A DNA stretch of 62,809 nucleotides, filler included, from Chrysochromulina tobinii (Eukaryota), in the NCBI GenBank assembly GCA_001275005.1. It is 10 parts of 10 records of this genome, joined end to end, with 100 filler letters (N's around TTAATTAATTAA, not from the genome) between each part and the next. Parts side by side here need not be neighbours in the genome. Positions count along the whole stretch, not along the records: positions 1 to 18,011 come from JWZX01000358.1; 9 more parts are not named here. One strand, written 5' to 3'. Under the pieces are notes generated by a model. The model was not told the origin of the DNA. It saw only the letters and a program-made list of their open reading frames with translations, and did not search any database. Positions 1-24,024 of the stretch are shown here, one piece after another. Made by a program: the position numbers and the translations under genes. Numbering within the stretch: position 1 is the stretch's first letter; each line of letters opens with the position of its first letter.

Positions 1-860
1 TTCTTGGCGCCGAGCACCGCGAGCTCGAGCCCCGCCCCCGTCGCGGCCGCCAGCTCGCGCACGACCACATCAAACGACGGCTTCACGCGCGCCGCGTCGG
101 CAAAGAGCACGGCCGCGACGCCCGCCTCGTCGCGCTGCTCGGCGACGGCGGGCTTCTTGATCGCGGCGTCGAGCGCCACGACCGCCGCCTCGTACTTGGC
201 CATGCCGTCCGCGTCGCCGCTCTTGATCACATTGAACACGCTCCCGTAGACCGACTGAAAGTCCTTGTTTCCCGCTTCGATCGCCGTCTGGCACGCCTTG
301 ACCAGCTCCCCCGCCGCCTCCTCGCTCACGCCCTCGGTGCGCTTTTTAATCTCGGTGGCCATCACCTGATCCACCGCGACGAGCTGCGCACCCAGCGCGC
401 CGACGGCCTCCTCGGAGTCTGGGTCGCGCGCCACGTTCAGCTCGAGCTCGTGCAGCCGGGCGCACGCTGCCTCGATGGCTTCGGTCTTGGCCAGTGTCTT
501 GAATGTATTGAGCGCCTCGGGCAGCTTGGCCGCGTGCTCGTCGTCGCCTTCCGTGGCCGCCGCCGACTTGATGGGGCCCAGCGCCTCGGCCGCCCTCTTT
601 TGAAGCGGCCGGAGCGCTTCGGGCACCTCGGACCGGGCATCGACCTCGCCAACCGGCGGCGTCTCGCCCTGCTTGGCCCCCTGCTCGAGCAGCCAGCGCC
701 CCAGATAGGTGAGCGGCCCTTCCGGCCGCGCGTCGGCCAGCGCATTGATGGCGGCGCTGAGAGCCGCCTCGAGCCTACCGCGGTGCTGGTCGACGAACGC
801 GTTCCGCGCCTGCACGTCGCGTGCGGCGCGCATCCGTCGACGCGCAGGACCAGATTCTCG
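1..860 (-). CDS. Partial hypothetical protein, runs off the window start; N-terminal Dpy-30/RIIa-like docking motif
   Basis: Open minus frame reads ...RLEAALSAAINALADARPEGPLTYLGRWLLEQG...VKPSFDVVVRELAAATGAGLELAVLGAK with high GC3. The start codon is not resolved. Confidence 0.55.
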
Positions 861-1929
861 GAGCCTGCCCTGCTCTGGATTGAATCTAAAGATCGCCCAA
901 AATCTGTATTCTAATCTCCGATATGAGATTTTCATTCGAGGAACTGTGCTTCCAACGCCAGTTCATGTACACGTTCATCCCCGTCGTCATCTGGGCGAAA
1001 TCCAGGAAATATCACCTCCTTAGCGGCGCCCCGCTTGCTGGCCTGTTGCCAGTAGTCATGTAAGCGCGCCCCCCGGGGACGCGCCTGCATGAGCGCCGCT
1101 GTACTGTGTGGTCCTGTTTTCAATTCACACGTTCACGTTAAATTGCCATCTCGGCAAGACTCACAGCCACAGGTCCCGTGGTCGAAGCCAGTTGTGCTAT
1201 ATGCTGACGTGTCATCTACTTTTTGCCGCGCAAACCTTTTCATTTTAAAAGTGAGGACTTTGTTCATGTTTGTATTGAAGTTTGACCCTGCAAAACTTGG
1301 CTACTGTCCAACTGTGCGAAACACACGTTGGAGCACAAAAGGTCAAGCTCTAAACAAGTTCCTTCTCGTGCGACTGAAGATGAATAGATCAAAGGAGGAG
1401 GATGGACGTGAGCGTAGGCCGTAGCCAGTGGACAGAGGTCAGAGCCAGGACGCAGGAGTGGACCCACCCCGGCGCACGGACTGGAACAGCACGGCGACCG
1501 AAATGTAACTAAATAACTACAAGATTCTCGATTCTCGGAGCGTGAGGGAAAACAGTTAAAACATGGCCCATGCGGTCCAACTGTTTCATATGCGCCAGAA
1601 CTCACCGGCGAACCGACGTGTACACGATGGACGGTCGCCCGCGGCATACAGATACACGCAGATACGCACACACATAGTTCATGCGCGAACCGTGATGCGA
1701 GGATATGGCGCCAGACGAGACATCATTGACGTTCACATGAGAGAGACGAGAAAGACTTGCGGTCATCTGCTGCATCCCCAGATCAGAACAGCACGAGAGA
1801 GTTCCCTCACGGAGGCGTCCATATTTGAAACTAGAGGCAGGCAGGGGCGCCACGTGTTCACGACCCAGCTCCACAGTTCACGCGCGCCAAGCCGAAACAA
1901 CGTTGGGGGCTCCATAAAGCCATCGAGGG

Positions 1930-2085
1930 CTTCCAAATTTGGGCTCGGACCCCAAATTGGGGTTGGATGGCGCCCAAATTTGGGCACCGAAGCGCCCAAT
2001 TTGGGCTCAGGAGTGCCAAAATTTGGGCTCAGGAGTGCCAAAATTTGGGCTCAGAAGCGCCCAAATTTGGGCTCAGAAGCGCCCA
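1930..2085. repeat. Tandem ~20-22-bp repeats built on the CCAAATTTGG palindrome, overlapping the ftsZ 3' end
   Basis: ccaaatttgggctc, gcccaatttgggctcagg and ccaaaatttgggctcag recur about 8 times. Confidence 0.85.
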
Positions 2086-3657
2086 AAGAAGCGACCGCGT
2101 GGCGGCGGCTTGGCCGGCGGCGGCGGCTGCGTGTAGCGGGAGGGCGGCGGCGCATACGCCGGCGGCACGTACGGATCCGCCTTCGATCGAGACGATGCCA
2201 CGACGGCCTCCGGAGGCACCTGATGAGGGAGGCAATCAGACAGCCCATCAGTGGCAATCAAGAGGCAATCAGACAGCTGGCGGAGTTCACGACGGCCTCC
2301 GGGGGCACATCGAAGCTCGTCGCGACCACAGTGACCGAGATCTCATCTCCGTAGGTTTCGTCAACCGAGGTGCCGAAGATGATGTTCGCATCCTCCGCGC
2401 AGATATTCGAGATCACGGACGCGACCTCGTTCACCTCCTGCAGCGACATGTCGCTGTTGCCCGTGATGGTGAACACGACGCCCTTGGCCCGTTCGATTGG
2501 GAAGTCGAGCAGCGGCGATGAGATCGCTGCGAGAGCGGCGTCTCGGGCACGCGTCTTACCGAAGCCGCGCCCGATGCCCATCAGCGCCGGCCCAGCGTCT
2601 GTCATCACGGCCCGCACCTGATGAGGGAGGCAATCAGCATGCAATCAGACCCAGCGCCGGCCCAGCGTCTGTCATCACGGCCCGCACCTGATGAGGGAGG
2701 CAATCAGCATGCAATCAGACTCAGCGCCGGCCCAGCGTCTGTCATCACGGCCCGCACCTGATGAGGGAGGCAATCAGCATGCAATCAGCCCCGGCGCACA
2801 TCGGCGAAATCGACGTTGATCAGCCCGGGCTTGATCACGATGTCCGAGATGCCGGTGATGCCCTGGCGCAAAATCTCGTCCGCCATCGAGAAGGCCTCCT
2901 GCAGCGGCACCCCCTCGGGCACGATCTCGAGCAGCTTGTCATTCGAGACCACGATCAAGATGTCCACCTGGGCCTCGAGCGCCTCGATGGCCTCGATGGC
3001 CTGGTTCATCCGTCGTCGTCCTTCGAAGCTGAAGGGTTTCGTCACGATGCCAACCGTCAGGCAGCCGGCGGCCTTGGCGAGCTCGGCGACCACCGGGGCG
3101 GCGCCCGAGCCGGTGCCGCCGCCCATGCCCGCGGTCACGAAGATCATGTCCGTCCCTGCCACTAGCTGCTCGATCTCTGCCGCTGCGTCGATGGCCGAGG
3201 CGCGCCCGACGGCGGGTATGCCGCCCGCGCCGAGGCCGCGCGCCTGATTCTTGCCCAGCTGGATCGTCGTGTCAGCCATCGAGCCCGCGAGCGCCTGCAC
3301 GTCCGTATTGCATGCCACGTACTCCAGGAAGGTCGAGCGCTCCAAATCGCCGGGCGTGGCCAGCCGATTAATCGTGTTGCCGCCGCCACCGCCGACGCCG
3401 ATCACCTTGATCGAGCAGGGCGACATGCCCGGGCTGGTCGGGCGAATGGGCTTCGAGGTGGTCTGCGGAGGCACGTAGTCGACGCCCTTGAACTCGCCCT
3501 CCTGCATCGCGAGCGCGCCCGAGCGCCGATGGGACAAAGCGACGGCCGCCGCGCCGGAGGCGACGGAGGTGCCCGTGGCGAAGCCGCTCGCAGCGCTCGT
3601 GGTGAACCCGCTCACGCCTCGCAGCGTTAGGACCGCGAGAACTAGCAGTGCGCGCAT
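2073..3657 (-). CDS. ftsZ: Plastid division protein FtsZ, nucleus-encoded; exons 3657-2800, 2617-2309, 2219-2073
   Basis: Motifs IKVIGVGGGGGN, GLGAGG, AGMGGGTGSG, KPFSFEGRRR, INVDFAD|VRAVM, ISSPLLD, IIFGTSVD. Signal peptide MRALLVLAVLTLRGVSG followed by F (bipartite leader). GT-AG introns restore the frame. Confidence 0.95.
2220..2308 (-). other. ftsZ intron 2 (89 nt), duplication plus branch-point-repeat type
   Basis: Starts gtgcccccggaggccgtcgtg, a near copy of the exon 3 start gtgcctccggaggccgtcgtg. Ends ctgattgcctccctcatcag. Confidence 0.85.
2618..2799 (-). other. ftsZ intron 1 (182 nt), three abutting GT-AG units of 42, 70 and 70 nt
   Basis: Acceptor cassette ctgattgcatgctgattgcctccctcatcag ends at 2758, 2688 and 2618, each followed directly by gtgcgggcc. 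Confidence 0.9.
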
Positions 3658-3897
3658 CTGTCAGCGTGGATGACGGTGATGGACCTGTCAATGGATGAAG
3701 CGACCTGCTGAGAGGCGCCAACCTGCGCCGCGTAATCATTGTCACAAGACGTTTCGAGAAACTTGACGAACCCAAGTTCGCGAAGTGCAAGTACCTCAAA
3801 AGCTTAGAGATACACGCACGTCAATGCTCGCAACGCGTGCAAACCGACATCGAGACTTCGTAGTCTGCCGCGCTGCGGCAATAACTTTACCGCCACC

Positions 3898-4902
3898 ATG
3901 AACGCCACCGCGCTCGCGCGTCCGGCGCTCCGTGTTACGGCCAAGGACTGCGGCGCGGGCTTCTTCGCGTTGCTGATCTACGCGCTCAACCAGCTCATCT
4001 ACGCCGAGTCGCATGGCTACGCCGCCCACGTGGACTTTGGAGAGCGTTGCCGCGACGGCCGCATCAACCGCTACTACAGCGCCGCGCACGGAACCAACGT
4101 GTGGGACTACTTTTTCCTACCCGTCGCACCAGCGGTGGTGCCGAGCGCGTCCGACGTGCTACTCACGCCGAAGCAACTCTTCAACCTCCATCATCTGGAC
4201 CCCGAGTCCATACAGACCTATCCGCACGGCGTGCATCGCCATCTCAAGCTACCTCGCTGGCGATACGATGAGCCATGGCACTGGACGATGCGCAGCCGCG
4301 CCTACCGGCTCCTTTCGGGTCCCGTTCGTCTCAAGCCCCCGCCGCTGCACGTCGTGCGCACGTTTTACCGCGAGCACATACTCGCGCGCGGTTCCGAACG
4401 GCCACTGCTTGGCCTGCACCTTCGTGGCACCGACAAGCTCAAGAATATCGGTGGCCGCATCATCGGGCCTGCGGAATACCAACCGCTCGTGGGCGCGTAC
4501 CTCACGCGCCATCCCGACGCGCTCATCTTCCTCGCCACCGACTCGCCGGCTTTCCTCGCCGAGATGCGCCGCCGCTACCCCGACACGCTCGTCGTCTACG
4601 ACGCGCTGCGCTCGGAGCGCAACGTCTTCATCGATCGCAAGGTGGCGGACACGTACAAAAAGGGCGAGGACGCGCTCGTGGATGCGCTGCTGCTCTCGTG
4701 CGCCAACCTGCTCATCAAGCCCGCCTCGGCGCTCTCCGAGTTTGCCGTCTATTGGAACCCGCAGCTGCACAACCACACGCTCGAGCTCCAGTACGAGGTG
4801 GGGCTCGACGTGCCCGAAACACTCAAGGCGCATTTTGCGAGCGAACGCGACCGGTTGCGGGGGTTTGAGCGCTGCGCGCCCGTTTTGAGGGCAGCAGCTT
4901 GA
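3898..4902 (+). CDS. NodZ-like / O-fucosyltransferase-fold glycosyltransferase
   Basis: GAGFFA, NVWDYFF, LGLHLRGTDK, IFLATDS, GEDALVDALLLS..LLIKPASALSEFA match the GDP-fucose-binding motifs of GT23/NodZ-type enzymes. Confidence 0.8.
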   Translation: MNATALARPALRVTAKDCGAGFFALLIYALNQLIYAESHGYAAHVDFGERCRDGRINRYYSAAHGTNVWDYFFLPVAPAVVPSASDVLLTPKQLFNLHHLDPESIQTYPHGVHRHLKLPRWRYDEPWHWTMRSRAYRLLSGPVRLKPPPLHVVRTFYREHILARGSERPLLGLHLRGTDKLKNIGGRIIGPAEYQPLVGAYLTRHPDALIFLATDSPAFLAEMRRRYPDTLVVYDALRSERNVFIDRKVADTYKKGEDALVDALLLSCANLLIKPASALSEFAVYWNPQLHNHTLELQYEVGLDVPETLKAHFASERDRLRGFERCAPVLRAAA

Positions 4903-5457
4903 CCGGACATGTGGAGACTATACTACTATCTAGGATCGTTTACGCCGCGCGACTTTCATGTTTCGCTGCGAGATCTCATGCGGCCGCGCTCCGGCTCCAC
5001 ATGTCATCACATGTCGACCCCTTGCCTCAATCCGCGCGGCGCTCTCGTGACTCCGTCACATCGCCGCAGTCGCGCGCGTCATCTGGCCTATCGCTCCACC
5101 GCTCTGAGCCGGTCCCTCGCCTCAATCGGCGCGGCCACTGGCACTGCGCCACCTCTTTCCGTTCACACACTCTCACTCGTCAGTCGTCACTAGAAAATGC
5201 TCACTCGTCCGCGTGTCGCGCCGTCGTCGTCCCGGGCTCACAGATCATACATCATAGTTCTCAATTGATAGTTCTCACACAGATGTTCTCACACAAAGTT
5301 TTCACTGTGATCTTCTCCTACAGAGTACAGACCATGGTTATGTGGGAACATCAGCACAATCACACAGATCCTGGATAATCGGTCTTCGATGTGTGAACAT
5401 GATGTGAACTTTGGAAAACGGGTGTCATCTCGTTGCCCGAGCTTCCGTCGCTGTGCG

Positions 5458-6078
5458 ATGACGCATCCTCGCTTCAGCACGCTGCTGGCGCTCGTCCTGA
5501 TCGCCGTCGCCGAATGCTATCACGTGGTCAGCGCGCCGCTGCCGTGCGTGCGAGTAGCTGCACGAGCTACGCCGGCGCCCGTCATGATGGCCAAGAAACA
5601 GGCGGCGGGGAAAAAGGTCCAGGTCGTGCTCAGCCAGACGATCAAGGGCATCGGCAACAAGGGCGAGCTCGTGTTGGTGGCGCCGGCGTATGCGGAGAAC
5701 GTCGTCGTTCGGGGCGGGCTGGGCGTGATCGCCTCACCCGAGATCTTGGCGGACATTGCGGCCAACGCGGCGAAGGACGCAGCAGCGGCGAAGGCGGCAA
5801 AGGATGCCGCCATTGATGCCGACAAAAAGCTCGATGCCGTCTTCGGCAAGCAGGGCTGCTTGATCAAGAAGAGCGTGGGCCGTGACGGCGCCATTTTCGG
5901 CTCGATCACCGCGGCGGAGGTCGCCGATGCGATCAAGGAGCGTGCGGGCCTCGTCGTAGACAAGAAGGACATCGAGCCGCCTACGATGAAGGGCGTGGGC
6001 ACGGGGACGGCCGAGGTGAAGCTGCACAAGGAGGTGACACACAAGCTCAAGATCGTGGTGGCGCCGGCCACATTATGA
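5458..6078 (+). CDS. rpl9: Plastid 50S ribosomal protein L9
   Basis: Signal peptide and transit region, then VQVVLSQTIKGIGNKGELVLVAPAYAEN and GAIFGSITAAEVADAI...VKLHKEV. Confidence 0.9.
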   Translation: MTHPRFSTLLALVLIAVAECYHVVSAPLPCVRVAARATPAPVMMAKKQAAGKKVQVVLSQTIKGIGNKGELVLVAPAYAENVVVRGGLGVIASPEILADIAANAAKDAAAAKAAKDAAIDADKKLDAVFGKQGCLIKKSVGRDGAIFGSITAAEVADAIKERAGLVVDKKDIEPPTMKGVGTGTAEVKLHKEVTHKLKIVVAPATL

Positions 6079-6404
6079 GGGGCCGTAGCGAGCCTGCCGC
6101 TCCCGAGCCGCCGCATGAGGCATGCAGACTGTCTCAGACTCGGTCGTGTAGACGCTCTTCCTCGCCACAGACCGAGTACGTATCGCTGTCGGTCGCGCGG
6201 CGACGGTGCGTAAGTCGGTGCACTGTGTGTGTGTACTTTCTTTGTTACTTTCGCACAACCGACCGTAGCCCTTTTCCGCAGTGTTTCCCGCAGTGGGATC
6301 GCGCAGTAGATCAGACCACTCGCTCGGTCGTCGGTGCACACTCTACGGTATTAGGGCCCTCCAGGCACCACGCTCTAGGACTAGGTGCCCATCACTCGCT
6401 CGGT

Positions 6405-9400
6405 TCAGACGTTGAGCGGCCGGCTCCTGCCGACCACGCCTCCCACAGCCTCAGTCAACTGAGCCGCTGTGGGCGAAGGCACGCGCGCCGGGTAGCCCCC
6501 AGCTTGGCCCGGACTCTCCCTGACGAAACCCGGGGAGCCTGCCTGACCCAGCGCCGTCGTGGGCGCATGCGGCGGCGGCGCGCCGTCAGGCCCCGGGAGG
6601 CCGTGGGGAGATCCGGGGAAGGCGATGGGCCTGTGCTCGGCGAGCTGCTGCCGGCGGGACTTGTGCACCGGCGTCAGCTTGAGGCCGGGGTGCGTCGCGC
6701 CGCCGTGGGCACCGCTCGGCGGCGCGGCGGGGGGATGGCTGCTGCTGCTGCTGCCCACGCCGGCGCGGGGCGACCCCCCTGTCCTTAAGGCGCCCACCAC
6801 GACGCCGCCTTGGGCGAGCGTGCCGCGCGCTATCGTGGGCGTCGAGCGCGAGAGTCCCAAACTGGGCAAGCTCACGCCGTGCTGAGCGCCGTGCTGAGCG
6901 CTCGGCGTCGTGGCGGGCGTCGCGGGTGCGCCGATGACGCGCGCACCCGCGACGACAACGGCCGGGTTCACGCCCATATTTGGAACAAACGTATTCGGAA
7001 CGTCCGTGCCCATATTTGGAGCGTCCGCCCCAAAAGGCGAGCGGTTCACACCCATATTTGGAGCGTCCGCCCCAAAAGGCGAGCGGTTGCGCGCCTGAAC
7101 ATGCGCCCCCATGGAGCTCGTGCTGCCCGCGACGGCGCCGCGCAGCGCCGTCCTGGGCGGCAGTCCACCACGGGCTGTGTGGCCCGCGCCGATGGCGGCG
7201 CCGTCCTGGGCGGCGGCTCCAATGGCGGCGGCGGCGCCGCCGATGGCGGCGGCGTTGGTCCAGGGCGCCGCGTCGGGCGCCGCGTAGGGAGAGGAGGAGT
7301 CGGCGCCCGACTCGGCGCCCCCTTCCTTTTCGGGCAAGTATGAGGCCGTCCGTAACGGCTCGTCCATGCCCGACGGTTGGGCGCTGACGTTCATCGTCGG
7401 GATTGAATTGCGGACTTGCCTCGGGGCACCTGATAATGAGGGGGGCAATCAGGTGGCACTCAGCGTGGCTGGCCATCAAGAGGCCATCAAGAAGAGGCAG
7501 TCCGATGCCATCAGATGCAATCCGATGCCATCAGATGCGATCAGATACAATCAGATGCACTCAGATGCACTCACCTTTCCATGTAGGCTCTGGATGGATG
7601 GGCGTCGCCTTCGCCAGCGGCGGCGGCGGGTTGACCTCCACACGCACCACCATCTCGCCAAAGTCGGCCCCTACGGACACGATGCCCCAACGTCGCAATC
7701 AGAGGCAATTAGAGGCAATCAGAGGCAATTAGATGCAATCTCGCCAAAGTCGGCCCCTTCGGAGACGATGCCCCAACGTCGCAATCAGAGGCAATTAGAG
7801 GCAATCAGAGGCAATTAGATGCAATTAGAGGCAATCAGATGCACTCACCTTCGGACACGATGCCCCATCGCGTTCGGTTGGTTGGGTTGCGCACGAAGCG
7901 GTGCTGCTGCGCGCCCCTCTCGTCCGCCGGGTCACCGCTCGCGTTCGCGGGCTTATCCGCGACCTTAAGCCCACTCAATTGGCTTGTGAGGTGGTCGCGC
8001 AGCTGCAGCAGCGAATGAAGCGACGACTTGACGAGCATGGAGCGCTCGTGTTTCGAAGCTTCGCGCATCCGTGAGAGCGCATCCCATGCCTCGTGAGACG
8101 ATTGGAGGGCCTCGCCGAGCGCCGCCTGATGAGGGAGGTAATTAGGGAGGCAATTAGGGAGGCAATTAGGGAGGCAATTAGGGAGGCAATCAGGGAGGCA
8201 ATGAGGGAGGCAATCAGGGAGGCGATTAGGGAGGCGATTAGGGAGGCAATCAGGGAGGTAATCAGGGAGGTAATGAGGGAGGTAATGAGGGAGGCGATTA
8301 GGGAGGTAATTAGGGAGGCAATCATGTTGGAGCGCTTCTCCGAGGGCCGCTTGATGAGGGATGTAATTAGGGAGGCAATCATGTTGGAGCGCTTCTCCGA
8401 GGGCCGCTTGATGAGGGATGTAATTAGGGAGGCAATCATGTTGGAGCGCTTCTCCGAGGGCCGCTTGACGAGGGAGGTAATTAGGGAGGCAATCATGTTG
8501 GAGCGCATCTCCGAGGGCCGCTTGACGAAATTAGAGGTGCAATCAGACACACTCAGAGGCATTTCGAGAGGCACTCAGCTGGGCGAACTAGAGAGGCAAT
8601 CGGCGACACCTTCACGTCGTCCGGGGAGGACATCATCAGGTCCCACGCGTGCTGCAGCTCATGTGTTAATTGCGATCTCTCGCCCTCGAGATCGGCCACG
8701 CGCCGCCGAAGCTTCTCCGCCTCTGCCTCCGCCGCTGCCGCTCGAATGTCAAAGTCTTTCTGGACGGCGTCCATCTTCGCCTTCGAGTCCTTGCCAAAGT
8801 TCTGCAGCCGTTCCTCGAGGCTCGACACGTACCTGTGGGGAAAAGGCACTCGATCGCAATCAATGCTCATCAGTGCTCATCAGTGCTCATCAGCGCTCAT
8901 CAGCGCTCATCAGCGCTCATCAATGGCATTCACGCACGATGATCGGTCGTTGAGCTGCTGGCTCAGAGCGCCCGCTTTCTCATGAGCCTCTTTGAGCTGC
9001 GCCTCGAGCGCGCGCTTGGTGGCGAGGTGCTCGCGTGCAGACGCTTCGTAATTGGCTCGCATCGTCTCGATTTGGGCCGCTTGCCTCGCGCACCTGATGA
9101 GGGACGCAATTAGGGAGGCCATTAGGGAGGCAATGAGGGAGGCCATTAGGGAGGCCATAGGGAGGCCATTAGGGAGGCAATTAGGGAGGCAATGAGGGAG
9201 GCCATTAGGGAGGCAATTAGGGAGGCAATGAGGGAGGCCATTAGGGAGGCAATGAGGGAGGCAATGAGGGAGGCCATTCGGGAGGCAATCGACTCGATTT
9301 GGGGGCCGCGTGCTTCACGCACTCCAACGTCTTTTGCTCTAACGCCGACGCCGTGGTCGCGAGCTGCGATCTCGTCTGTTCGAGATCGGCCGAGGTCGCG

Positions 9401-11812
9401 GCGAGAATCTTCTTTGTGTTTTGGAGCAGCTCGAAGGTCTGCGAAGGAGGAGGTCGGACGTGAGCGGCAATTAGGCGCACTCAGGCGCACTCAGGGAGGC
9501 ACTCAGGGAGGCACTCAGACGCACTCAGACGCACTCAGGGTACAATCAGGCGCACTCAGTCGCACTCACCTGCGCCAGGTCGGTGCGCGTCGCGTCGAGC
9601 TCGCCCATGAGCTGCCGGATCTCGCCCAAGGCCTTGTCGTGCTGGGCACGCACCGCCCGGAGATCGTCCTGGAGATTGTGCAGTCGCTTCGCGCTCTCCT
9701 TGCTCTCCTCGAGCCAGTCCCTTTTTTGGGCGCGCAGCTCCTGCGAGCAATTGAGGGAGCAATCAAGGGAGCAATTGAGGGAGCAATTGAGGGAGCAATT
9801 AAAGGGAGCAATTAAGGGAGCAAGTAAAGGAGCCATCAATGGAGCGAATAAGGGAGCAATTAAGGGAGCAATCAAGGGGGTCATCAAGGGGTTCATCAAG
9901 CAGGCAATCTCGCACCTGGAGCTCGGCGAGAATGACAGTGAGCAGATCGTCCAGATCGACGATGTCGGTCGTGAGCGACTCGGAGGGCGCCGTGCTGAGC
10001 GACTCGGGGGGCCGAGGCGGCCCTCCCGCGGCACGCTCCATGGACACGTGTGCCTTGCGTAGCATCGTCTCGAGCCGAAAGATGGTCGCCTCGTTCTCCG
10101 CGTTCTTGGCTTTTACCTGCGGAGGGGACGGCAATCAGACGTCATCAGACGCCATCAGACGTCATCAGACGCCATCAGACACGAACAGACGCAATCAGAC
10201 GCAATCAGAGGCAATCAGCATGCAATCAGACGTCATCACACCTCGGCGAGCACGGCGAGGCTGGCCTCGGCCCATCCGATGAGGGAGGCAATCAGCATGC
10301 AATCAGACGCCATCACACCTCGGCGAGCACAGCGAGGCTGGCCTCGGCCCACCCGCGGTACGCGTTATGCTCTCGCTGCGCCTGCGAGCTTCGCTGGCTC
10401 AGCTCCTCAAATGCCTCGGTCTTCGATTCGAGCGCGCGCGTCGTCACGGCAAGCTCGGACTGGTACGACGCGAGCTCATCCTCCGAGCGCTGCGACGAGC
10501 CAATCAGGTTCGTCAGAGGTAATCAGAGGTAATCAACGCTCGGACTGGTACGACGCGAGCTCATCCTCCGAGCGCTGCGACGAGCCAATCAGGTTCGTCA
10601 GAGGTAATCAGAGGTAATCAACGCTCTGACTGGTACGACGCGAGCTCGTCCTCCGAGCGCTGCGACGAGCGAATCAGGTTCGTCAGAGGTAATCAGAGGT
10701 AATCAGGGGCCATCAGAGGCCATCAGCAGTGGCACTGAGTGAGGCACTGAGTGGCACTCCGATGCCATCTCACCTGCAGCTGGTAGTCGGCTCTTCGAAA
10801 CCCTTCTCTGAGTGGCCATCAGTGGCCATCAGTGGCAATCAGTGGCAATCAGAGGCCATCTCACCTGCAGCTGGTAGTTGGCCTCTTCGAAACTCTTCTC
10901 GGCCTTCGCGCGCATCTGGCGCTCCTCACCTGATGAGGGAGGCAATCAGCATGCAATCAGCCCCGATGCCCATCAGCATGCATCTGGCGCTCCTCACCAT
11001 TGGCGTCGCGCAGCTCGCCGTTGAGGTTCGTCAGCTTCGAGATCTCGGCGAGGAGCTCGGCCTGTCGCGCAAATGCCTCGTGCAGGATCTTGCCTTGCTC
11101 ACCTGATGAGGGACGCAATCATGCCTCATCGTAGTGCTCATCAGAAGTTCTCAGGCGTCCTCAGAGGTCCGCAGAGCTCCTCAGTGCTCCTCAGGAGGTC
11201 CTCAGAGGTCCTCAGAGGTCATCAGGGGTCCGCAGAGCTCCGCAGAGCTCCGCAGAGCTCCGCAGAGCTCCGCAGAGCTCCTCAGAGCTCCTCAGAGGTC
11301 CTCTGCGTAAGGATCTCGCTTGGCTCACCATCCTTCTCCTCGCCAGAGCCGGCGCCGACTGCGCTGAGGATGCGCTCGACGATCTTCTGCTCGATCTCGA
11401 GCTGCGAGAGCTCGCGTCCTCGGTAGTCCGCCTTCACCTCTTCCACCTTGATCTCTCCCGCCTTTCGCGCGCGATCGAGCTTTTCCTCATTCGCCTTGAT
11501 GCCTTCCTTCAGCTTCTCCCTGAGGCTGAGCTGCAGCTCGTCGGCGATGCGGGAGATGAGCGCAAGGACCGAGCCGGATATCGACTCGAGCCCGAGCCCC
11601 ACTATCTGCCGCATCGCCTCCCACTTCTCCTCGTCCTCATCCGCAAACACCTGCAGCTGCTCGAGCAGCTCCTGCGACGCGCTCCCGATCGCGACCTCGA
11701 CGTCCTCGTCGACGCTCTTGAGCGACGGCGCGCCCAGCGAGTCCTTGGTCGGACTCAGCCTCTTGGCCAGCTGCGGCGCCGAGCGGTTCTGGCGCGTGAC
11801 GGCCTTGAGCAT
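6405..11812 (-). CDS. Large multi-exon coiled-coil protein with a low-complexity Pro/Gly/Ala C-terminus; roughly a dozen or more repeat-rich introns
   Basis: Heptad-rich exon fragments (ELQLSLREKLKEGIKANEEKL; ECARQAAQIETMRANYE; ELRAQKRDWLEESKE; YVSSLEERLQNF) are separated by GT-AG introns such as 11103-11328, 10930-10997 and 10490-10864. The exon map is only partly resolved. Confidence 0.7.
8126..8530 (-). repeat. Intronic 12-mer array (ctaattgcctcc/ctgattgcctcc) plus four 60-bp-period diverged copies of the next exon start
   Basis: Plus strand shows attagggaggca repeats and atcatgttggagcgcttctccgagggccgcttg four times. Confidence 0.85.
9093..9322 (-). repeat. Intron with a 12-mer array, starting with a diverged copy of the following exon
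   Basis: Intron starts gtgcgtgaagcacgcggcccccaaatcgag and the exon starts gtgcgcgaggcaagcggcccaaatcgag. The interior is ctaattgcctcc/ctcattgcctcc repeats. Confidence 0.8.
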
Positions 11813-12044
11813 CCTCCGATGAGTCGGCGGCGGGCGAAACGGCGCACAAAAGTTGAAGGAAACACCTCGACTTCACGTTCACGTTAAAATTGCCAACGCG
11901 GAACACCTCGTCTATTCCAAGCTGTGGTCGGGTCACGTACAATTAGCCTCTGTCACTTGGGGCCCTTGGGATTTCGTCCACAAATCTGAGACGCTGCAAA
12001 AGGAGATTCGCTCCAAAACGCACCGCCCGTCGCCACCGCGAGGC

Positions 12045-12596
12045 ATGGAGCTCACGGCGATGGACGAGCGGATCGAGGCGATCCTGAGCGCCAAGCGTGC
12101 GGCCGCGGCTGCACACCTCAAGCAGATGAGAGACCACTTGGCGGCCCTCGGCGAGCAGGAGGCGCTCCGATGCACCGACGCGAGCCTACTGCGCTTCCTT
12201 GAGTCGGAGGTGACGTTGAAAGGCACGGAAGTGAAGGCTGTGCGCGTCCCGTCCGCCGCGAGGAACCTGCTCGCCACGCTCAAGTGGCGCAAGAGCTACG
12301 GCCTCGAGTCGCCAGGTCCGCCGCTGCGCACGACGCCGTGCTGCCCGGGCTGTGAAGAGAACGCGTACTCCCACTGCTTCTTCTCGATCGGCGTCGACAA
12401 GCGCGGCTGGGAGGTGTTTTACGCGTGCCCGGGCCGCTCGCACGGCAAGAACCCGGACGCCCTCGTCCGCCACAGCATCCTGAGCCTGGAGAGTGTCTTC
12501 GAAGGACCTTTTGAAGTGCATCCGCGGGATATGCCCAACACGGCGCGGGATATGCCTAATATGGATATGCCCAACACGGTGTCGACGACTGCCGGC

Positions 12597-12634
<38 letters not shown>

Positions 12635-14636
12635 GAGCACTGGCGGCCTCCTCGTAGCTGACGAGCGACCTCTGATGGCTCCTCTGGGAGGCGCCGAGGC
12701 GAGCCATGCGACGAGCGGTGCGCCCGACGACGAGCCGCTCACGGTGATGGCCAAGGTGCTGCTCACTCCTCGCCGACGGGAACGGCAGCAGCACGTGCTT
12801 GCTGCGAGCTCCGTCGAGGTGCGTCGGAGATTGCGTCGGAGATTGCGCCTGACTGATGGCGTCTGATTGCGATAGATGAACGCTCCAGGCAGCGAAGCGA
12901 GAGCAGTCTGATGACCTCTGTTGGCGTCTGGTGGCGCTCAGATGGCAGGTGCTGCCACGCCTCCCTGATGACCTCTGATGGCGTCTGATGACCTCTGATG
13001 GCGTCTGATGACCACTGATTGCCTCTGATGACCTCTGATGGCGTCTGATGACCTCTGATGGCGTCTGATGACCTCTGGTGGCGTCTGTTTTCGCTCGATG
13101 GCAGGTGCTGCCACGCCTCCTGCCGGCCACGATCTCCCCCGATCTCCTCCCGACGGTTTCGTCAGTTTCGTCAGACAAGGGGCGCGCGAGCAAGGGGCGC
13201 TCGATCACGTCAGTTTCGTCAGTTTCGTCAGTTTCGTCAGACAAGGGGCGCGCGAGCACGGACCGCTCGATCACGTCAGTTTCGTCAGTTTCGTCAGACA
13301 AGGGGCGCGCGAGCACGGGCGTTGCAGGCAGGGTCGGCGTGGGCGAGGGCGGCGGCAGAGGCACAAGCGACGACGACGCGAGTGAGCGGTGCCAGTTGTG
13401 CCTGCAGGCTGGCGTGGGCGGATTGGGCGCCGAGTTGGGCGCCGAAGGCTCTTCGCTACCTCCGTGGTGCCGCCCCTCGTCGTCGAAGCACATGGTGATT
13501 GCGTCTGATTGCGTCTAATTGCGTCTAATTGCCTCTGATTGCCTCACTCATCAGGTGCCGCCCCTCGTCGTCGAAGCACATGGTGATGCTTGTCGACTTG
13601 CATGGCTTCGGGATAGCGGACATGGACCCGAGGGTGGGGCTGAAGGCGATCCCGATCATCTTGTCGCACTATCCCGACCGCATCGCGCAGGTGTGTGAGT
13701 GCGTCTGAGTGCGTCTGAGTGCGTCTGAGTGCGTCTGAGAGCGTCTAATTGCGTCTGAGTGCGTCTGGTCTGATTGCCTCGACAGGTAGGCTCCTCGACG
13801 CTCCATGTTCACACCTCTGGTCCATGTTCACACCTCTGGTCCATGTTCACAGGTAGCGCTCCTCGACGCTCCATGGATCTTTAAGGGCATCTGGTCCATG
13901 TTCACGCCTCTCCTCGACGAGATCATGCAGATGAAGGTGATGGCTACTGATTGCCATTGATGATGACTGATGACATCGACGAGATCATGCAGATGAAGGT
14001 GCACACATGTGCTCCGGGGCGAGGACCCCCAGCAGCTCTGATGGCCGCTGATTGCCACTGACGATCACTGAGGGTCACTGATTGCCTCTTTCATCAGGTG
14101 CGCATGCTCCAGGGCGATCACTGATGACCTCTTGATTGCCTCTGATGACCTCTCGATTGCCTCTTTCATCAGGTGCGCATGCTCCGGGGCGACGACATGC
14201 AGCAGTACTTCACATCGTTTCTAACGGCCGAGCAAGTGGAGTTCATGCAAGCCGTGCTGACGATCAAGGCCGCGCCGCGAAAGGTGGTGGCCGCTGATTG
14301 CCTCTGATTGCCTCTGATTGCCTCTGATTGCCTCTGATTGCCTCCCTCATCAGCCGTGCTGACGATCAGGGCCGCGCCGCGAAAGGAAGCCTGCCCACTC
14401 TCGAACCATGACGAACCCCGACGAACCCCGACGAACCCTGACGAACCCTGACGAACCCTGACGAACCCTGACGAACCCTGACGAACTCTGAACCCGAACC
14501 CGAACAGGAAGCTTTCCCGCCCATCACCGCGTCAATCCGTCGGTCGCTCGGCCCCGCCGACAAGTTCTACCGCGATCATCTGGAGGCGATGGGGGGGCAG
14601 TTGGACGCCAAGATGCACCAATGCTGTGGGTGCTGA
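12045..14636 (+). CDS. CRAL-TRIO (Sec14-like) lipid-binding protein, multi-exon
   Basis: TDASLLRFL, LLATLKWRK, GVDKRG.EVFY. Spliced exons read MVMLVDLHGFGIADMDP..IILSHYPDRIAQ|VALLDAPWIFKGIWSMFTPLLDEIMQMK|VRML. The middle exons (12750-13150) are uncertain. Confidence 0.85.
13467..13554 (+). other. Intron whose first 33 nt exactly duplicate the next exon start
   Basis: gtgccgcccctcgtcgtcgaagcacatggtgat at 13467 and 13555, separated by (gcgtctRatt)n and ctcatcag. Confidence 0.9.
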
Positions 14637-14919
14637 CGTTCCCCTATGAACAGCGCACGTTTACCACGTTCGGAGGTCTCGCAGATCACTCACCCTCGTG
14701 AGAAGTCCGCCAAGGCCCAAGGGAACGCAATCCCGATCCCAGCAGAACGCAGAACGCAGATCACGCAGAGCCAATTGCTAATCTTGGGACAGACTCTGCT
14801 CAGATCTGAGATCAAATGATTCCACCGTTTTTGGAACCCTTAGCCGCGATCTATCTCGTTTGACCCGACCCGTCTCAAAATTTAAATCATATAAAATGAT
14901 ACACCATGATGATCACACT

Positions 14920-16090
14920 TCACAGCCTCACCAGCACGACAATGTTGCCTCGGATCTCGTGCCCCGCGTCGGTCCGGACCGCCAAGTCAAGTCAAGTCAA
15001 GTGCCCCGCGTCGGTCCGGACCGCATGCGGACCGCCGTCTCCTCCAAGCTGAAGAGAGTGAGCTCCGTGGAATGCTGCGCCACCAGATGAGGGGATCCTC
15101 ACGTGATCAGCTAATATGTGCAATCCCAACTCGTTTCACAGGAGGCAGCTCTCAAAGGAGAGGCGAGATCACACCGAGATGTACTCAGAGGTCCGTAGGG
15201 AGGGCAGGCACTCAGGAGAGGCGAGATCACACCGAGATGTACTCAGAGGTGATCTCCGCAGGGAGGGCAGGCAACAGAGAGAGGCAATCAGAGGTCATCA
15301 GAGAGGCGATCAGAGGTTCATCAGAGGGGCCATCGGTCTAGGCAATCCGACTCCTCGAAACACGCACCTGAGCCACGAGGTAGTGGACGTATTCCACGCA
15401 GTGTGCGACCCTCTCCGACGCCCTCTCGAGCCAGCCAGGCCCTTGCGGCGGCAAACCTCCGCGGACCTCGTCGAGGCGGCACGTCTCAGTTGAGAAGGCG
15501 AAGACGCCGCCCGAGGCCAAGGCGGCCACCGCGGCGGAGAAGAGCTCGGCGAGACCATGCAGATAGCAGATCACGTCGGCGGCGACGATCAGATCCGCAG
15601 AGCTCGCTTTCTGATCGCGTAGATACGCGACGCAGTCACCACAGGTGGGTACCGCATCGTACACGCCCTTGGACTCGGCGATCCTGATCATGCTGCTGCT
15701 GAGATCGCATCCGAACAAGTGGCCCGTGCAGTGCTTGCGGAGGAGCGCGCCGGCGAGACCCGTCCCGCACCCGAGATCCAAGCACGCGGTGGAGCTGAGC
15801 ACTCCGTCCGACGCACCCGTGGATGCGACGAATGCAAGCAGCGCCCTCTCGAGCTGTGCAGGCGTTTCATACTGCAACGAGCCGAGCAAAAGGGGCTCGA
15901 AGTCCGCCGCGTGCCGGTCGAAGAGGGCGGAGACGTGCTCTCGGTAATGGCCGTCGAGCAGCGCCTCCGCAGTCATCGTCGGCCCCTGGTCGTCACGCTG
16001 GTCCAGTGAGCCCCTGGCCAAGAGTTCGCGACAGAGCCGTCCCGGCTCGACGAGATCCACGGAACCGCTAGTCGGCGCCGCCGAGCGCAT
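14920..16090 (-). CDS. Class I SAM-dependent methyltransferase (resembles the MTase domain of TPR-methyltransferases), with 3' introns
   Basis: VSALFDRHAADFE..L..LQYETP, CLDLGCGTGLAG, GCDLSSSMIRIA, DLIVAADVICY, GGVFAFSTE, R.AH..YV. Intron about 15075-15367; 3' exon ends IRGNIVVLVRL*. Confidence 0.85.
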
Positions 16091-16131
16091 GCTGCCGCCC
16101 TGCGGCGCGAAGAAAGGCCGCCCTGCTGTCG

Positions 16132-17817
16132 GTGTCGCGAGCGCGAGAGGCGGTGCGCAACCTATCGAGCAAGAGCGCGCTGGCTGACGGCGAGCCGCCC
16201 ATGTACTTTGTGCATGCGACTAAAGCGGGCGAGGTGCCGCTCTTCGTCGAGAAGAGCAAATGGAACAAGTTGATCACGCGCTGCGAGCACTGCGCCGGCG
16301 ACGTGCAGGCGCTCGCGACCGCGCTGAAGCAGGCGCTGGGCACGGGCGGTACGATGGATGGCAGCGCCATCATCATCCAGGGCGATCAGCGCGAGGCCCT
16401 GACGGCGTGGCTCCTCAGCCGCGGGCTCGTTCGCGGGCTGCGCTCAGACAAGCTCTCGGAGAAGCACGAAAAGGGGGACGCGCCGGAGGAGGTGGCGGCG
16501 CCGGTGCTGCGCGAGCGCAAGAAGCCGCGCTGGACGACGGGCGACAAGGCGGCCGCCGCGGCGCGTGCGAGCAACGAGCAAAGCGACGGGGATGGCGCCG
16601 ACGAACCCGACGAACCCGACGAACCTGACGAACCCGACGACGGGGAGGGTGGCGCCGACAACGGTGCTCTCGAGGGCGGGGTCTCATCGCGGTTGCGCGA
16701 GGCCTCCTCTCGCCGCTCGCTCGCCGAGCTGCAAGACGACGACGTCGAGGCGCTCGTCTCGGTGGACAAACGATCGATCACCGACAAGAAGGGGTACAAG
16801 AAGTTCGTGCGTCTGATGAAGAGCTGGCCGTACTGGAGCTGTGAATATTCACAGCTACCCTGCCTCTGGCAACGCCACCAGGTGATGCCGCCGAGGGCCC
16901 CTGACGAAACCTCATGAGAGCCTCTGACGAAACCTCCTGATTGCCTCTGACGAAACCTCATGAGAGCCTCTGACGAAACCTCATGAGGCCGTTGACGAAA
17001 CCTCATGGAGCCTCTGACGAAACCTCCTCATTGCCTCTGACAAAACCGCATGAGAGCCTCTGACGAATCCTCATGAGAGCATCTGACGAAACCTCCTGCG
17101 CGCCGCTGACGAAACCTCCTGAGTGCCTCTGACGAAACCTCTGCTGAGATGCGCCTACAGGTGCGCACGGATGGCATTCGGGAGCTCTGCGCGTCCGAGG
17201 ACGACCTTCAGCGAGATCTGCGCATCCGAGGACGACCTTCAGCGAGACCGTTGAAGCCCAGGAGGCGCACGGAGGGATGTTCGACCTCGTGCTCGAGTGC
17301 GGCGGCGACGACTCCGTATTTCCAGGGTGCAGCCGCCGAGCTCTTAGAATCCGTCGCCGAACTCGACGCGGCCCACTCTCGTGGGGAGGGCAGCGTACGG
17401 AGCCCTTGGCAAGCCCAAGCCGTGCCGGCGCTCGCTGGCCGCGCCGGAGCCATACACTTGGCGAGCACATCCCATCCTTCCACCGTCGCCGACCATTCGC
17501 CCCCATGTGTCGCCGTGGAAACGGCCGCTGGTTCGAACGCGGCCGCACGCAAGGTGGGAAAGCGGCCGGTGCTAGTCCCCCTGGGGTCTGGCGGCATCGC
17601 GAGATGGGGCCAGTCGAACCCCATTTCCTTCCTTCGTATCCCCAAAGTCATTAAGTCAACCCTTTCATTAGAATCAATTGAACACGTTCCTTGGCGTAAA
17701 CTTGGTCACGTTGGTAGAGATTGGCGGTTCATCAATAACTACACAAATGGCAGCCTGGTGAGCGCGACATCCCAAGATCACCGATCTGGGCAGCCTGGCT
17801 ACCAATCCCGCATCTGA
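16132..17817 (+). CDS. SUI1/eIF1-like domain protein; intron about 16882-17160; first in-frame ATG at 16201
   Basis: KLITRCEHCAGDVQALATALKQALGTGGTMDGSAIIIQGDQREALTAWL matches SUI1. The intron is built of ctgacgaaacct repeats. The 3' end is uncertain. Confidence 0.65.
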
Positions 17818-18011
17818 CCACGACTCCCCCCTCCCCCCCTCTCCCCAATTGCATGCGACAAGGGGTTGAAGACCGAACAAACTGTCTCTCCACCTTCATT
17901 TCACGCGAGACGCTTTCCTGTCAATGGTGGCCGCCCCATCGACCCGTCCCGACGAGCCGCTCGACCCGCCCGCCGTGTGCTGCGGTCGCGAGTTCCGCGT
18001 GCGACGCGCAC

Positions 18012-21561: not shown

Positions 21562-24024
21562 CTACGTCGATGGTATTACTTCAACCCCTCTCCCCGCCTC
21601 GAGCTCGACGTCGCCTGCCGCGCCAGGCGGGCCCTGCTTTATCTTCTTCTTCTTCTTCTTGGCCGGGACGTCCGGACTCGAGGGCGGGCCGTCGCTCTCA
21701 TCCAGTACCACCTCTCGCAGCGCCTCGGCGCCTCCTTCCTCCAAACGCTCCCTTTCAAGGCGAGCCTGCCGCAGTTCGCTCAGGGCCGCGTCCGTGGCCA
21801 CTCTTGATTGGACGTGTGAATCAGACGTGTGAATCAGAGCCGAGTCCGTGGCCACTCGAGTTGCGCTGGTCGCACTCGTGGACTTACCTTGCACCTCCTC
21901 CTTCTTCTCAGCATTGACCCAAGTTACGGAGAAGACAATCTTGCCTTGCGGGAAGACGTCTTCACTGAAGTTGATGCGCTCGTAGTCCGCGAGCGCCTGA
22001 AGGCTGACGCTCACCTCGCCCATCGCGTCATCGCTGTCCAACACGCCCATGTCCTTGTCCGTGATCACAAGCTCGAGTTGCTGTGAAAGCAGTTTGCCCA
22101 AGCGCTTCACTTTCCATGGACCCAGCGTCTCGTCCCACACGGGGTAGAGCGTCCTCTCCTTGATGGTACTCTGCACTCGTTGTTTGCCCAGCACGGCGCT
22201 GACGTACGGATCCGCACTGCCATTCGTGTCCGCGGGCTTGAGGCCATCCGCGTAGAGGAGGTGGATCCGCAGCTCGCCACGTCCCTCGAGCCGCAGGTGC
22301 TTCTCGGCGGCGCTCGTGGACTCGAGCTGAATAGGTGGTGGCAGCTCGGGCCGTCTTCCACGCGCACGCACCGCCTTGAGGACGGGCGGGAGCTTGGCGC
22401 GCTCCTCTTCGAAGGCGCGCCGGCACTTTTCCATGTCGGCCTCCTTCCGGCTCCCCTTCGTGATCTCCTGATCCAAATTCTTGAGGAAGGCGTCAAAGTC
22501 GATCGACTGCCCATGTAAGCAGGTGGCAAGTTCGCTGAAGGAAAGGCCATATGCGCCCTGGGCGGCGTCAACGTCTGTGTCGGCATCCCTGAGTACTGTG
22601 TGAGCAATGGCATGCGCCTTCTCCCAAGGAACCCAGGGTGTCCCGTCGCTCTTCTCCGCGTGCGCGAATGCTTTGCAGATGTCGACGGGCTCGATCGCAC
22701 CGTTATTGTCTGGATCCAAGTCTCGATAGATGAGAGCTGTAAGGGCGGCCTTCATGCCCAGCTCCGCAAACTCGCCTCGCTTCGAGACGAGCTCCTGGCG
22801 CTTATTTCGCAGCACTGTCGACGAGCCGTTGGGCAGGCAGTAGAATGCCACTACGTCCGCGACTAGGTTGGCCGACCCCGCGACGACGACGGCGCTCAGG
22901 AGCACCTTGAGAAGCACGAAGAAGTCGAACGCGTACACCTGCCCGGTGACATGGAACTTGAAGACGACTCCGCGACGATGGCGGTCGACGATGTCAAACT
23001 CGGAGGGCGTGCCTCCCGGAAGCGCCGCCGATCCGACCCACACGGCGTTCTGCCGGCCGACTTCCACATCGACGGCGACGATGCTCGACAGGCGCACCTC
23101 GGCGTGCACGCTGCGGTTGCCGATGATGGCGCGTCGAGAGTACGGATCCAGATTCGTGTACGAAATGTCGACACGCAGGCTCGCTCCCGTCGATCGGCGG
23201 TTGGGGAGGACGCCGCTCGGGCCCGTCCTTGTCGATGGGTTGGGCGCGTCAAGGCTGATGCCGGCTGCAGCAAGCCACTCGCTGAGGGGGAGCTGGAGCG
23301 CCACGCCCGCATCAAAGCGAAGCCGCGTGCCGTTCGCGAAGACCAGCTCGCTCCAGAGGCCCTCCTCGCCAGGCAGCGCTCCCACCGATGACCCTCGCCA
23401 ACTGCCATCGACCACATACGCGTGCTCGAAACTCAGCGACATGCGCTCGACGGCAAAGGGAAAGATGGTCTGCCGCAGCTCGCACCCACACTGCCCACTC
23501 TGGCGCTGGAATGGCACGCCGCCGCGCGTCGAGCATGCTGTGCGACGAGTGCGGTTGCCGTCGTCGGCGCAGCGCCAGCCTGTGGTGCGGGTCTCTGTGA
23601 GCGCGCTCGTGAATGCCATCGCATCTTCCGTCTTGTACGTCAGCTCGGACGGTCGGAAGAGACGGCATGGGAGTGCCTGCTGCTGCTGCTGCTGACCCAG
23701 TTGCAGCATCCACGGCTCTGCGCAGTAGGGTGCCGTCAGTGCAGCAGGACGCACACTGGTCGTGCTTGGCATGCCCCCTTGCGTGCTCCACGCGTTGACG
23801 ATACCACCGGGCACCTCGGTCATCGCCCACGCGTTGCTGAAGTGCAGAGGCAGCAACGCCACTAACATCGCGATCAGCACGCAAGTATAGTAGAGCATGC
23901 CAACCTCCGGCACATCGACCTTGATGTACTTGGGCGTCTGGTAATAGAGGAGCCACGGCGCGTGCGTGCGGATCCACGGGGAGCCACAGGATGGCTCCAT
24001 GAGGCAGCTGTACGACAGGCCCAT
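21562..24024 (-). CDS. P2X-receptor-like ion channel fused to EF-hand and C2 domains
   Basis: YQTPK motif before TM1, Cys-containing ectodomain, RGVVFKFHVTGQVYAFDF followed by TM2 ending ADVVAFY, EF loop DPDNNGAIEPVD, and C2 motif LKPADTNGSADPYV..STIKERTLYPVWDE. Confidence 0.85.
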   Translation of the reverse strand: MGLSYSCLMEPSCGSPWIRTHAPWLLYYQTPKYIKVDVPEVGMLYYTCVLIAMLVALLPLHFSNAWAMTEVPGGIVNAWSTQGGMPSTTSVRPAALTAPYCAEPWMLQLGQQQQQQALPCRLFRPSELTYKTEDAMAFTSALTETRTTGWRCADDGNRTRRTACSTRGGVPFQRQSGQCGCELRQTIFPFAVERMSLSFEHAYVVDGSWRGSSVGALPGEEGLWSELVFANGTRLRFDAGVALQLPLSEWLAAAGISLDAPNPSTRTGPSGVLPNRRSTGASLRVDISYTNLDPYSRRAIIGNRSVHAEVRLSSIVAVDVEVGRQNAVWVGSAALPGGTPSEFDIVDRHRRGVVFKFHVTGQVYAFDFFVLLKVLLSAVVVAGSANLVADVVAFYCLPNGSSTVLRNKRQELVSKRGEFAELGMKAALTALIYRDLDPDNNGAIEPVDICKAFAHAEKSDGTPWVPWEKAHAIAHTVLRDADTDVDAAQGAYGLSFSELATCLHGQSIDFDAFLKNLDQEITKGSRKEADMEKCRRAFEEERAKLPPVLKAVRARGRRPELPPPIQLESTSAAEKHLRLEGRGELRIHLLYADGLKPADTNGSADPYVSAVLGKQRVQSTIKERTLYPVWDETLGPWKVKRLGKLLSQQLELVITDKDMGVLDSDDAMGEVSVSLQALADYERINFSEDVFPQGKIVFSVTWVNAEKKEEVQGKSTSATSATRVATDSALIHTSDSHVQSRVATDAALSELRQARLERERLEEGGAEALREVVLDESDGPPSSPDVPAKKKKKKIKQGPPGAAGDVELEAGRGVEVIPST

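Follow-up and report, generated by a model that had tools for sequence, protein, structure and literature searches.

The stretch of DNA analysed here (the window; 62,809 nucleotides) consists of ten contigs of Chrysochromulina tobinii (GCA_001275005.1) joined by N-linkers, and the finding described below, a set of unusually built introns, lies in contig 1, bases 1-18011. Three genes on this contig carry them: a plastid-type ftsZ on the minus strand (2073..3657), whose exons 3657-2800, 2617-2309 and 2219-2073 encode 437 aa with both introns removed and whose closest named homologue is that of Prymnesium parvum (92% over exon 2); a gene for a coiled-coil-like protein, also on the minus strand (6405..11812), which upon removal of its 11 introns has an open frame of 1029 aa, 48.6% identical to P0001 (residues 6-464); and a plus-strand gene (12045..14636) that, going by a motif, we take to encode a CRAL-TRIO-like protein, although two pieces of it had no Pfam match. 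All counts rest on 16 introns in these genes, defined via RNA joints and reading frames; further candidates at 12819-13104, at 13691-13852, from 15367 onwards and at 16882-17160 have no listed RNA joint and stand outside this set. Three RNA runs (X11, X12 and X13) were without listed differing letters and were treated as same-strain, and X15 as a different haplotype. As argued below, it is likely that introns are being generated here at present, probably via DNA repair and not by a known transposon.

Two layouts recur. In type A introns a duplication of exon sequence supplies the GT donor and an insert supplies the acceptor; type B is the mirror image, with the donor from the insert and the acceptor from the duplication. 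Five of the 16 introns are type A, each starting with a copy of 18-35 nt of the next exon. ftsZ intron 2 (2220..2308, minus strand, 89 nt) begins with positions 2308-2288, a copy of exon 2219-2199 (21 nt, 1 mismatch) that contains the GT donor, and its 68-nt insert provides the acceptor. The coiled-coil-like gene holds three on the minus strand, namely 9094..9322 (229 nt), where 9322-9288 is a diverged copy of 9093-9061 (20 nt with 3 mismatches, or 35 nt with a 2-nt gap) followed by a 194-nt tract of 12-mers; 10930..10997 (68 nt), where 10997-10980 is an exact 18-nt copy of 10929-10912, followed by a 50-nt insert; and 11103..11328 (226 nt), where 11328-11310 is a diverged copy of 11102-11084 (19 nt, 3 mismatches), followed by a 207-nt tract of 10-mers. 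The fifth, in the plus-strand gene (13467..13554, 88 nt), opens with 13467-13499, an exact 33-nt copy of exon 13555-13587, and continues with a 55-nt insert. All five copies had been reported in the first-pass annotation of this DNA, and each is present; only the exon start placed there at 9092 has to move, to 9093. Its broader statement that many introns begin in this way holds for these five of the 16, but not beyond them, and the tandem 10-12-mers said to follow the copy are listed in four of the five, with none listed in 10930-10997.

The anchored test, in which the 5' end of each intron was aligned with the next exon, gave these five introns scores of 11.5-33 and the remaining 11 scores of at most 5, the null of 240 mismatched intron/exon pairs having a maximum of 7.0 and a mean of 2.4. 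In the local alignment of each intron with its own flanks (null maximum 12.0), a flank copy stood above the null in 11 of 16 introns, or in 12 when 11103-11328 is added, whose copy (11.5) exceeds the null in the anchored test only. Counts were taken from these two tests and not from an unfiltered repeat scan, which was swamped by tandem arrays. The type B layout was found in one of the 16, the 178-nt intron 7671..7848 (minus strand; RNA joint in X13), in which the terminal 22 nt copy the end of the upstream exon and form the acceptor, and which has an internal 86-nt tandem unit. The other nine contigs (44.7 kb with linkers) hold one weak type A candidate and the tract motif is almost absent from them; at 21780-21890, contig 2 has a candidate intron that contains a 13-mer tandem as well as sequence copied from the downstream exon.

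The remaining introns of the set are built more loosely. ftsZ intron 1 (2618..2799, minus strand, 182 nt; RNA joint in X11, X12, X13 and X15) holds three 70-nt units combining the acceptor cassette with the start of exon 2. On the minus strand of the coiled-coil-like gene, 8126..8609 (484 nt; X12, X13) holds four 57-nt units with a diverged copy of the downstream exon start, together with 12-mer arrays including CCCTAA; 10117..10318 (202 nt; X11, X13) repeats the upstream exon end and donor internally, in a 77-nt unit; and 10490..10864 (375 nt) has internal copies of both flanks in three 85-nt units. The same gene and strand contain 7430..7574 (145 nt; X13), in which no copy of its own flank rises above the null, 8833..8937 (105 nt; all three same-strain runs), whose 7-nt match to the next exon is likewise not above it, and two introns with no flank copy, 9439..9569 (131 nt; 10-mer tract; all three runs) and 9741..9915 (175 nt; 12-mer tract; X12, X13). 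In the plus-strand gene, 13937..14172 (236 nt; X11) and 14284..14507 (224 nt; X11, X12) both contain the ends of the upstream and downstream exons copied in joined form, the latter also having a copy of the upstream exon's end and terminal CCCGAA units that resemble a telomere variant. Such joined copies may stem from a cDNA template, although a type B event and then a further duplication would suffice without one. Since tandem arrays of 57-86-nt units run across splice sites, they post-date the introns, so that flank copies by themselves are no proof of intron gain.

The tracts are real spliceosomal introns. The same-strain runs list 15 joints, 14 of them GT-AG introns; at 14 of the 16 positions the RNA mapped as a GT-AG joint, and three of the five introns singled out in the first-pass annotation, whose proposal depended on the tracts being spliced out, are among them. 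The joint of 11103-11328 occurs in all three runs and lies at most 7 nt into the imperfect repeat, and that of 9094-9322 occurs in X11 and X12, at most 5 nt into it; joints so near the start of imperfect repeats are as predicted by splicing. The joint of 13467-13554 was found in X12 only, with a depth of 2.5 and 34 ambiguous letters, and that of 2220-2308 only in X15, a haplotype possibly without the intron in its DNA. RNA support for 10930-10997 is an 11-letter loose end in X13, to which the open frame and the alignment with P0001 can be added, and for 10490-10864 the RNA joint falls at the near-identical copy at 10575, with a 26-nt side, the acceptor at 10490 being taken from the open frame. 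The 3' part of the plus-strand gene is open once four introns are removed. An artefact, arising from assembly errors at repeats or from reverse-transcriptase template switching between direct repeats, could be suspected from the short-read origin of the contigs, from the ambiguous letters at the 13467 joint and from the number of 70-nt units, which differs between assemblies (L007 has one fewer than the window in ftsZ intron 1). We regard it as very improbable, as two other assemblies repeat the first 12.6 kb and are concordant over 12 kb (L006 with 2 mismatches, L007 with 1), the copies are not identical to the exons, the 9322 and 11328 joints are no more than 5 and 7 nt from the GT/AG ends of imperfect repeats, and the open frames need the introns to be removed.

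The motif at the end of the tracts, CTCATCAG, had been interpreted as a branch-point microsatellite. It does end all five type A introns, and seven of the 16 in total, but it is more likely the acceptor end, with a candidate branch point 17 nt upstream. CT(A/G)A(C/T), which matches the branch-point consensus, occurs in the introns 111 times in sense and 15 times in antisense orientation, compared with 4 and 4 in coding sequence, and the A of its last copy lies at -17 in seven of the 16 introns, including all type A introns, and at -15 to -33 otherwise. An AG precedes the donor in nine introns and the other seven have a GT after the acceptor without that AG. None of the five type A introns has an AG before its donor and all have an insert, which is not the pattern of AG|GT tandem duplication; that route, as given in the accessible part of PMC3443670, is alike in turning exon sequence into intron by local duplication, but it derives the two splice sites alike from the duplicated segment and does without a foreign insert, whereas type A introns here have inserts of 50-207 nt.

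Seven inserts were compared, those of the five type A introns of the window among them; another belongs to a 78-nt type A intron in a phosphatase-like gene at L068 (a paralogue or relative), which has a 38-nt copy and a related cassette and whose retention leads to a stop codon. The inserts measure 40-207 nt and the duplications 18, 19, 21, 30, 33, 35 and 38 nt, and there are no complementary terminal bases in any of the seven, the L068 insert having one internal palindrome; variable lengths and missing terminal inverted repeats (TIRs) had both been noted at first pass. Neither the inverted repeats nor the fixed 3-9-nt target-site duplication of introners derived from DNA transposons (TIR elements or miniature inverted-repeat transposable elements) were thus found. 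The claim that the insert is simple repeat has to be corrected. Exact runs of 20-36 nt are common to introns of different genes, with a recurring terminal stretch of 8-36 nt, and this identity favours template copying over fresh slippage; the shared intron-end sequence suggests copying from other introns. For the 10930-10997 insert, 48 of 50 nt match two stretches from the ftsZ locus, at a distance of 8 kb (2793-2758 and 2585-2570), which overlap by 4 nt and one of which is coding sequence. The cassette also lies beside a repeated flank of 13-26 nt at four further loci, seen by eye in loose ends. A 19-nt version of it had no matches in viral contigs, and five matches in prokaryote genomes, which lack the tracts, look like chance.

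Such inserts could also be the work of a LINE-type (long interspersed nuclear element) reverse transcriptase acting on a short non-autonomous retro-element or an excised intron RNA, with priming at the 3' end, truncation at the 5' end and a GT taken from a variable target-site duplication, that is, an introner of the type without long terminal repeats (non-LTR). The corresponding hallmark of a constant 3' end with a variable 5' end and a variable duplication is seen in the five type A inserts of the window, which share a 3' suffix of 8-20 nt and vary at their 5' ends, and DNA depth at tract bins rises to ~12,000 compared with ~50 elsewhere, a value that is not a copy number. The hallmark is not seen in type B, whose inserts bear the donor end and not the 3' end. 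In addition, pairwise identity over the longer insert is just 0.15-0.67, no insert has an A or T run above 3 nt or an A/T tail, a constant 3' end is also explained by selection for a working acceptor, and duplications of 30-38 nt exceed the usual LINE range. We consider retroposition unlikely, albeit the strongest competitor of the reading preferred below; in the accessible part of PMC12130899, the non-LTR class makes up ~5% of the classified introners and includes one Pavlovales family of the 'co-opt 5' carry 3'' kind.

Direct information on age comes from ftsZ. A scan with FtsZ exon 2 gave 66 loci, of which 21 were examined for intron positions, disregarding automated intron calls that were wrong or in low-complexity DNA. 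L027 and L028 are near-identical to the window in ftsZ coding sequence (351/356 and 453/456 nt), continue into downstream non-coding DNA, and group with the window in a quick FtsZ tree of weak support, which was used only for this and for setting L069/L070 apart. Both read straight across the site of intron 2220-2308. Conversely, both hold an 88-nt GT-AG intron of type B that is absent from the window, consisting of a GT-initiated 58-nt insert followed by 30 nt that repeat the upstream exon and end in AG; the corresponding empty site in the window is the 30-nt exon stretch 2483..2512 (minus strand), which is duplicated around the insert in L027 and L028. The first of these positions (1167 of ftsZ) is read through in L027, L028 and 8 other haptophyte loci, with 9 of the 21 loci not informative, and the second (993) in the window, in L006 and L007 and in 10 further loci whose introns lie elsewhere, a count that omits L025, in which no intron was seen. 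Because other haptophytes are without both positions, the two polymorphic introns are, by parsimony, probably recent gains. Run X15 was considered as proof that the L028 intron is spliced and was rejected, since it has two L028 exon alleles in common but not a third one.

The opposite reading, that the introns are old, that exon copies were added or intron ends shifted later by local tandem duplication and repeat expansion, and that the polymorphisms are losses, draws on the same gene. The position of ftsZ intron 1 (858) is common to the distant haptophyte L069/L070, L051 has an intron 1 nt off position 993, the splice-site-spanning units of 57-86 nt are plainly secondary and the 70-nt units vary in number between assemblies; for these arrays, this reading is certainly right. 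As an account of the introns themselves it is improbable, as positions 1167 and 993 are empty in the loci listed above, position 858 is itself empty in 10 other loci, and type A introns start exactly at the copy with no tract before it. The comparison with other haptophytes that had been proposed at first pass has a divided outcome, the 2220-2308 site being empty elsewhere and the intron 1 position being shared, which counts in part against the first-pass proposal; intron 1 may be old or a parallel gain. Recent activity is shown by the two presence/absence differences between near-identical strains, but not by the range of divergence of the copies, from which ongoing activity had been deduced: divergence is unsafe as a clock because both polymorphic, presumably young introns already differ from the exon at 1-2 sites.

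A related architecture occurs in L069/L070, which the tree places, with weak support, in another haptophyte lineage. In five of the seven ftsZ introns there, a flank copy exceeds the null maximum (9.5, n=84), and TTAGGG/CCCTAA tracts are present, with G-strand units before C-strand units in both of the introns that hold the two kinds. The ftsZ introns of L069 (1-1846) and L070 are made of telomere-type repeats and exon copies, and at ~1685-1797 L069 has a further insert with a 25-nt duplication for which no GT/GC-AG solution was found. Telomerase-like repeat addition could extend broken ends before they are rejoined, the repeats supplying donor-like and branch-like signals. This fits L069/L070, which show the same layout, better than the window, although CCCTAA in the window introns also occurs 19 times in sense and never in antisense orientation. 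Mammalian breaks can take up telomere repeats with target duplication (PMC2246262), and Calcidiscus is intron-rich with pervasive interstitial TTAGGG (PMC13518057); in the accessible parts of these two papers, interstitial telomeric sequences resemble the present case in being tracts at a break, sometimes with target duplication, and fit L069/L070 directly, but they are not tied there to intron creation. Since the tracts of the window are mostly 10-mers of several kinds and other units, not TTAGGG, we consider telomere healing a rather remote explanation for them. Among 13 introns from other haptophyte ftsZ loci, one has a clear flank copy (L024) and a few are borderline, and the layout is thus patchy among haptophytes. 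The L024 intron (75 nt, GC-AG, at ftsZ coding position 1102) opens with a duplicate of next-exon sequence, and its insert is non-repetitive. L063 and L064 have an AT-rich ftsZ in which short exon pieces are repeated three to four times between AT/CT microsatellite introns.

Our preferred reading, to which we give an even chance, is that repair of a staggered break duplicates 18-38 exon bases and copies 40-200 bases of another intron's end between the two copies, many of these events likely being recent. Offset nicks in the exon followed by fill-in of the overhangs would produce the duplication, and the insert would come from synthesis on an intron DNA or intron RNA template, with slippage. Selection would then keep those products in which GT, a branch-like motif and AG lie in a register that restores the mRNA, with the duplication serving as donor and the insert as acceptor (type A) or the reverse (type B), and later tandem duplications across a splice site would lengthen the introns. 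This repair-coupled reading is favoured because it covers the variable duplications, both geometries, the mosaic inserts and the repeated rounds, and the young ftsZ introns do show direct repeats above background, as expected of intron gain by break repair.

Several points weigh against it. Four of the 16 introns have no flank copy in either test, and the tandem arrays across splice sites must be treated as secondary, flank copies alone not being proof of gain. The strain comparison is that of one gene in 2 contigs, which are possibly not independent samples, that the two polymorphic introns are spliced in their own strains is deduced from the reading frame, and the position of ftsZ intron 1 is, as stated, shared with L069/L070. 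As for the RNA, the flag 'between: not known' stands on 10 of the 14 GT-AG joints, and template switching by reverse transcriptase could also account for the one at 13467. The two-piece ftsZ match of the 10930-10997 insert was found post hoc and the cassette is widespread, and for the constant 3' end retroposition is at least as good an explanation as repair.

Compared with known systems, these introns are introner-like in borrowing a splice site, yet in the tests run here they do not behave as members of an introner family. A splice site is co-opted from the duplication with the mRNA restored, and presence/absence in close strains was found at two ftsZ positions (window, L006 and L007 versus L027 and L028), but the copies are neither alike end to end nor similar in length, with only 7 inserts compared. 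Introners that co-opt one splice site have been described in Symbiodinium, in Polarella (classes 4/5/6/8/10), in Aureococcus and in family 5 of a Chrysochromulina TARA metagenome-assembled genome (MAG) (PMC9860276, bioRxiv 10.1101/2020.10.14.339549, PMC12130899). As far as the accessible text of these sources goes, they likewise take one site from the duplication and one from the insert, restore the mRNA and occur in both geometries, but their duplications are 3-9 bp (PMC9860276) and fixed per family, in dinoflagellates per class (bioRxiv 10.1101/2020.10.14.339549), and their copies resemble one another over the whole length, in contrast to the present introns, in which the lengths of duplication and insert vary and only the last 8-36 nt are common. 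A haptophyte case in the available part of PMC12130899 is Emiliania huxleyi fam24, with 10-bp terminal direct repeats, which co-opts the 5' and carries the 3' site. New introns of Daphnia, which carry staggered-break repeats of 4-17 bases, are alike in being polymorphic, in having direct end repeats and in showing repeated internal duplications when young (PMC4202315, in part), but those repeats are shorter than the 18-38 nt found here, where the filler is also similar to other introns' ends and provides, as a recurring cassette, the splice signal that is lacking.

How new introns arise has yet to be settled, and introners are at present regarded as the sole mechanism to account for bursts of gain (PMC12130899, accessible part), with break repair and AGGT duplication covered by a review of gain mechanisms (PMC3443670, accessible part). 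Gain here looks frequent and ongoing, in a group whose sequenced member has no introner family listed: the 2025 introner screen, in the part available, gives 0 families for C. tobinii, its 15 haptophyte rows being Emiliania and Pavlovales (PMC12130899), and in the accessible portion of the 2022 introner supplement the accessions of C. tobinii and C. parva turned up in the genome list only. A screen based on end-to-end similarity would likely overlook these introns, and gene models of these algae will set exon boundaries wrongly where exon sequence is duplicated. The Emiliania genome paper reportedly describes 10-11-bp repeats as enriched in introns. We found no description of this intron layout in the literature searched, a search that did not extend to most subscription papers; the word "intron" occurs once in the C. 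tobin genome paper (PMC4580454), the accessible part of a Phaeocystales paper reports abundant simple repeats without this analysis (PMC12480563), and nothing relevant stands in the available parts of PMC2784329, PMC6759080, PMC13685798 and PMC8469720. Since the long duplications and the segregating empty sites keep the footprint of each event, repair, retroposition and telomere healing should be separable with existing genomes and metagenomes. Here we speculate, with considerable doubt, that several haptophyte lineages may run a transposon-free, self-feeding intron factory, in which the broken ends of exons undergo duplication and are lengthened by repeats, of telomere type or from intron ends, that already contain donor, branch and acceptor signals, the filler being telomere repeat in one lineage and copied introns in Chrysochromulina. 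If true, telomere-type end healing would be a direct source of new spliceosomal introns.

Downstream of the plus-strand gene, at 14959-15023, a 23-nt direct repeat surrounds a (CAAGT)n tract without obvious splice sites; loose ends of the tract are numerous in DNA run X1, and L028 has it again in non-coding DNA. The arrangement may represent the same process without splicing. Neighbouring genes on contig 1 encode a fucosyltransferase/NodZ-like protein (3898-4902; a weak match), a methyltransferase (15338-16090) and an SUI1/Img2-like protein (16200-16881). The ribosomal protein L9 of the window is identical to a Chrysochromulina parva protein at 205 of 206 residues, which, together with the FtsZ match to Prymnesium parvum, assigns the organism to the parva/tobinii group of Chrysochromulina. 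Elsewhere in the window, minus-strand frames at 24200-31016 resemble, by eye, a DIRS-type tyrosine-recombinase retroelement, and a frame at 40796-42000 looks, also by eye, like the integrase of an LTR retrotransposon.

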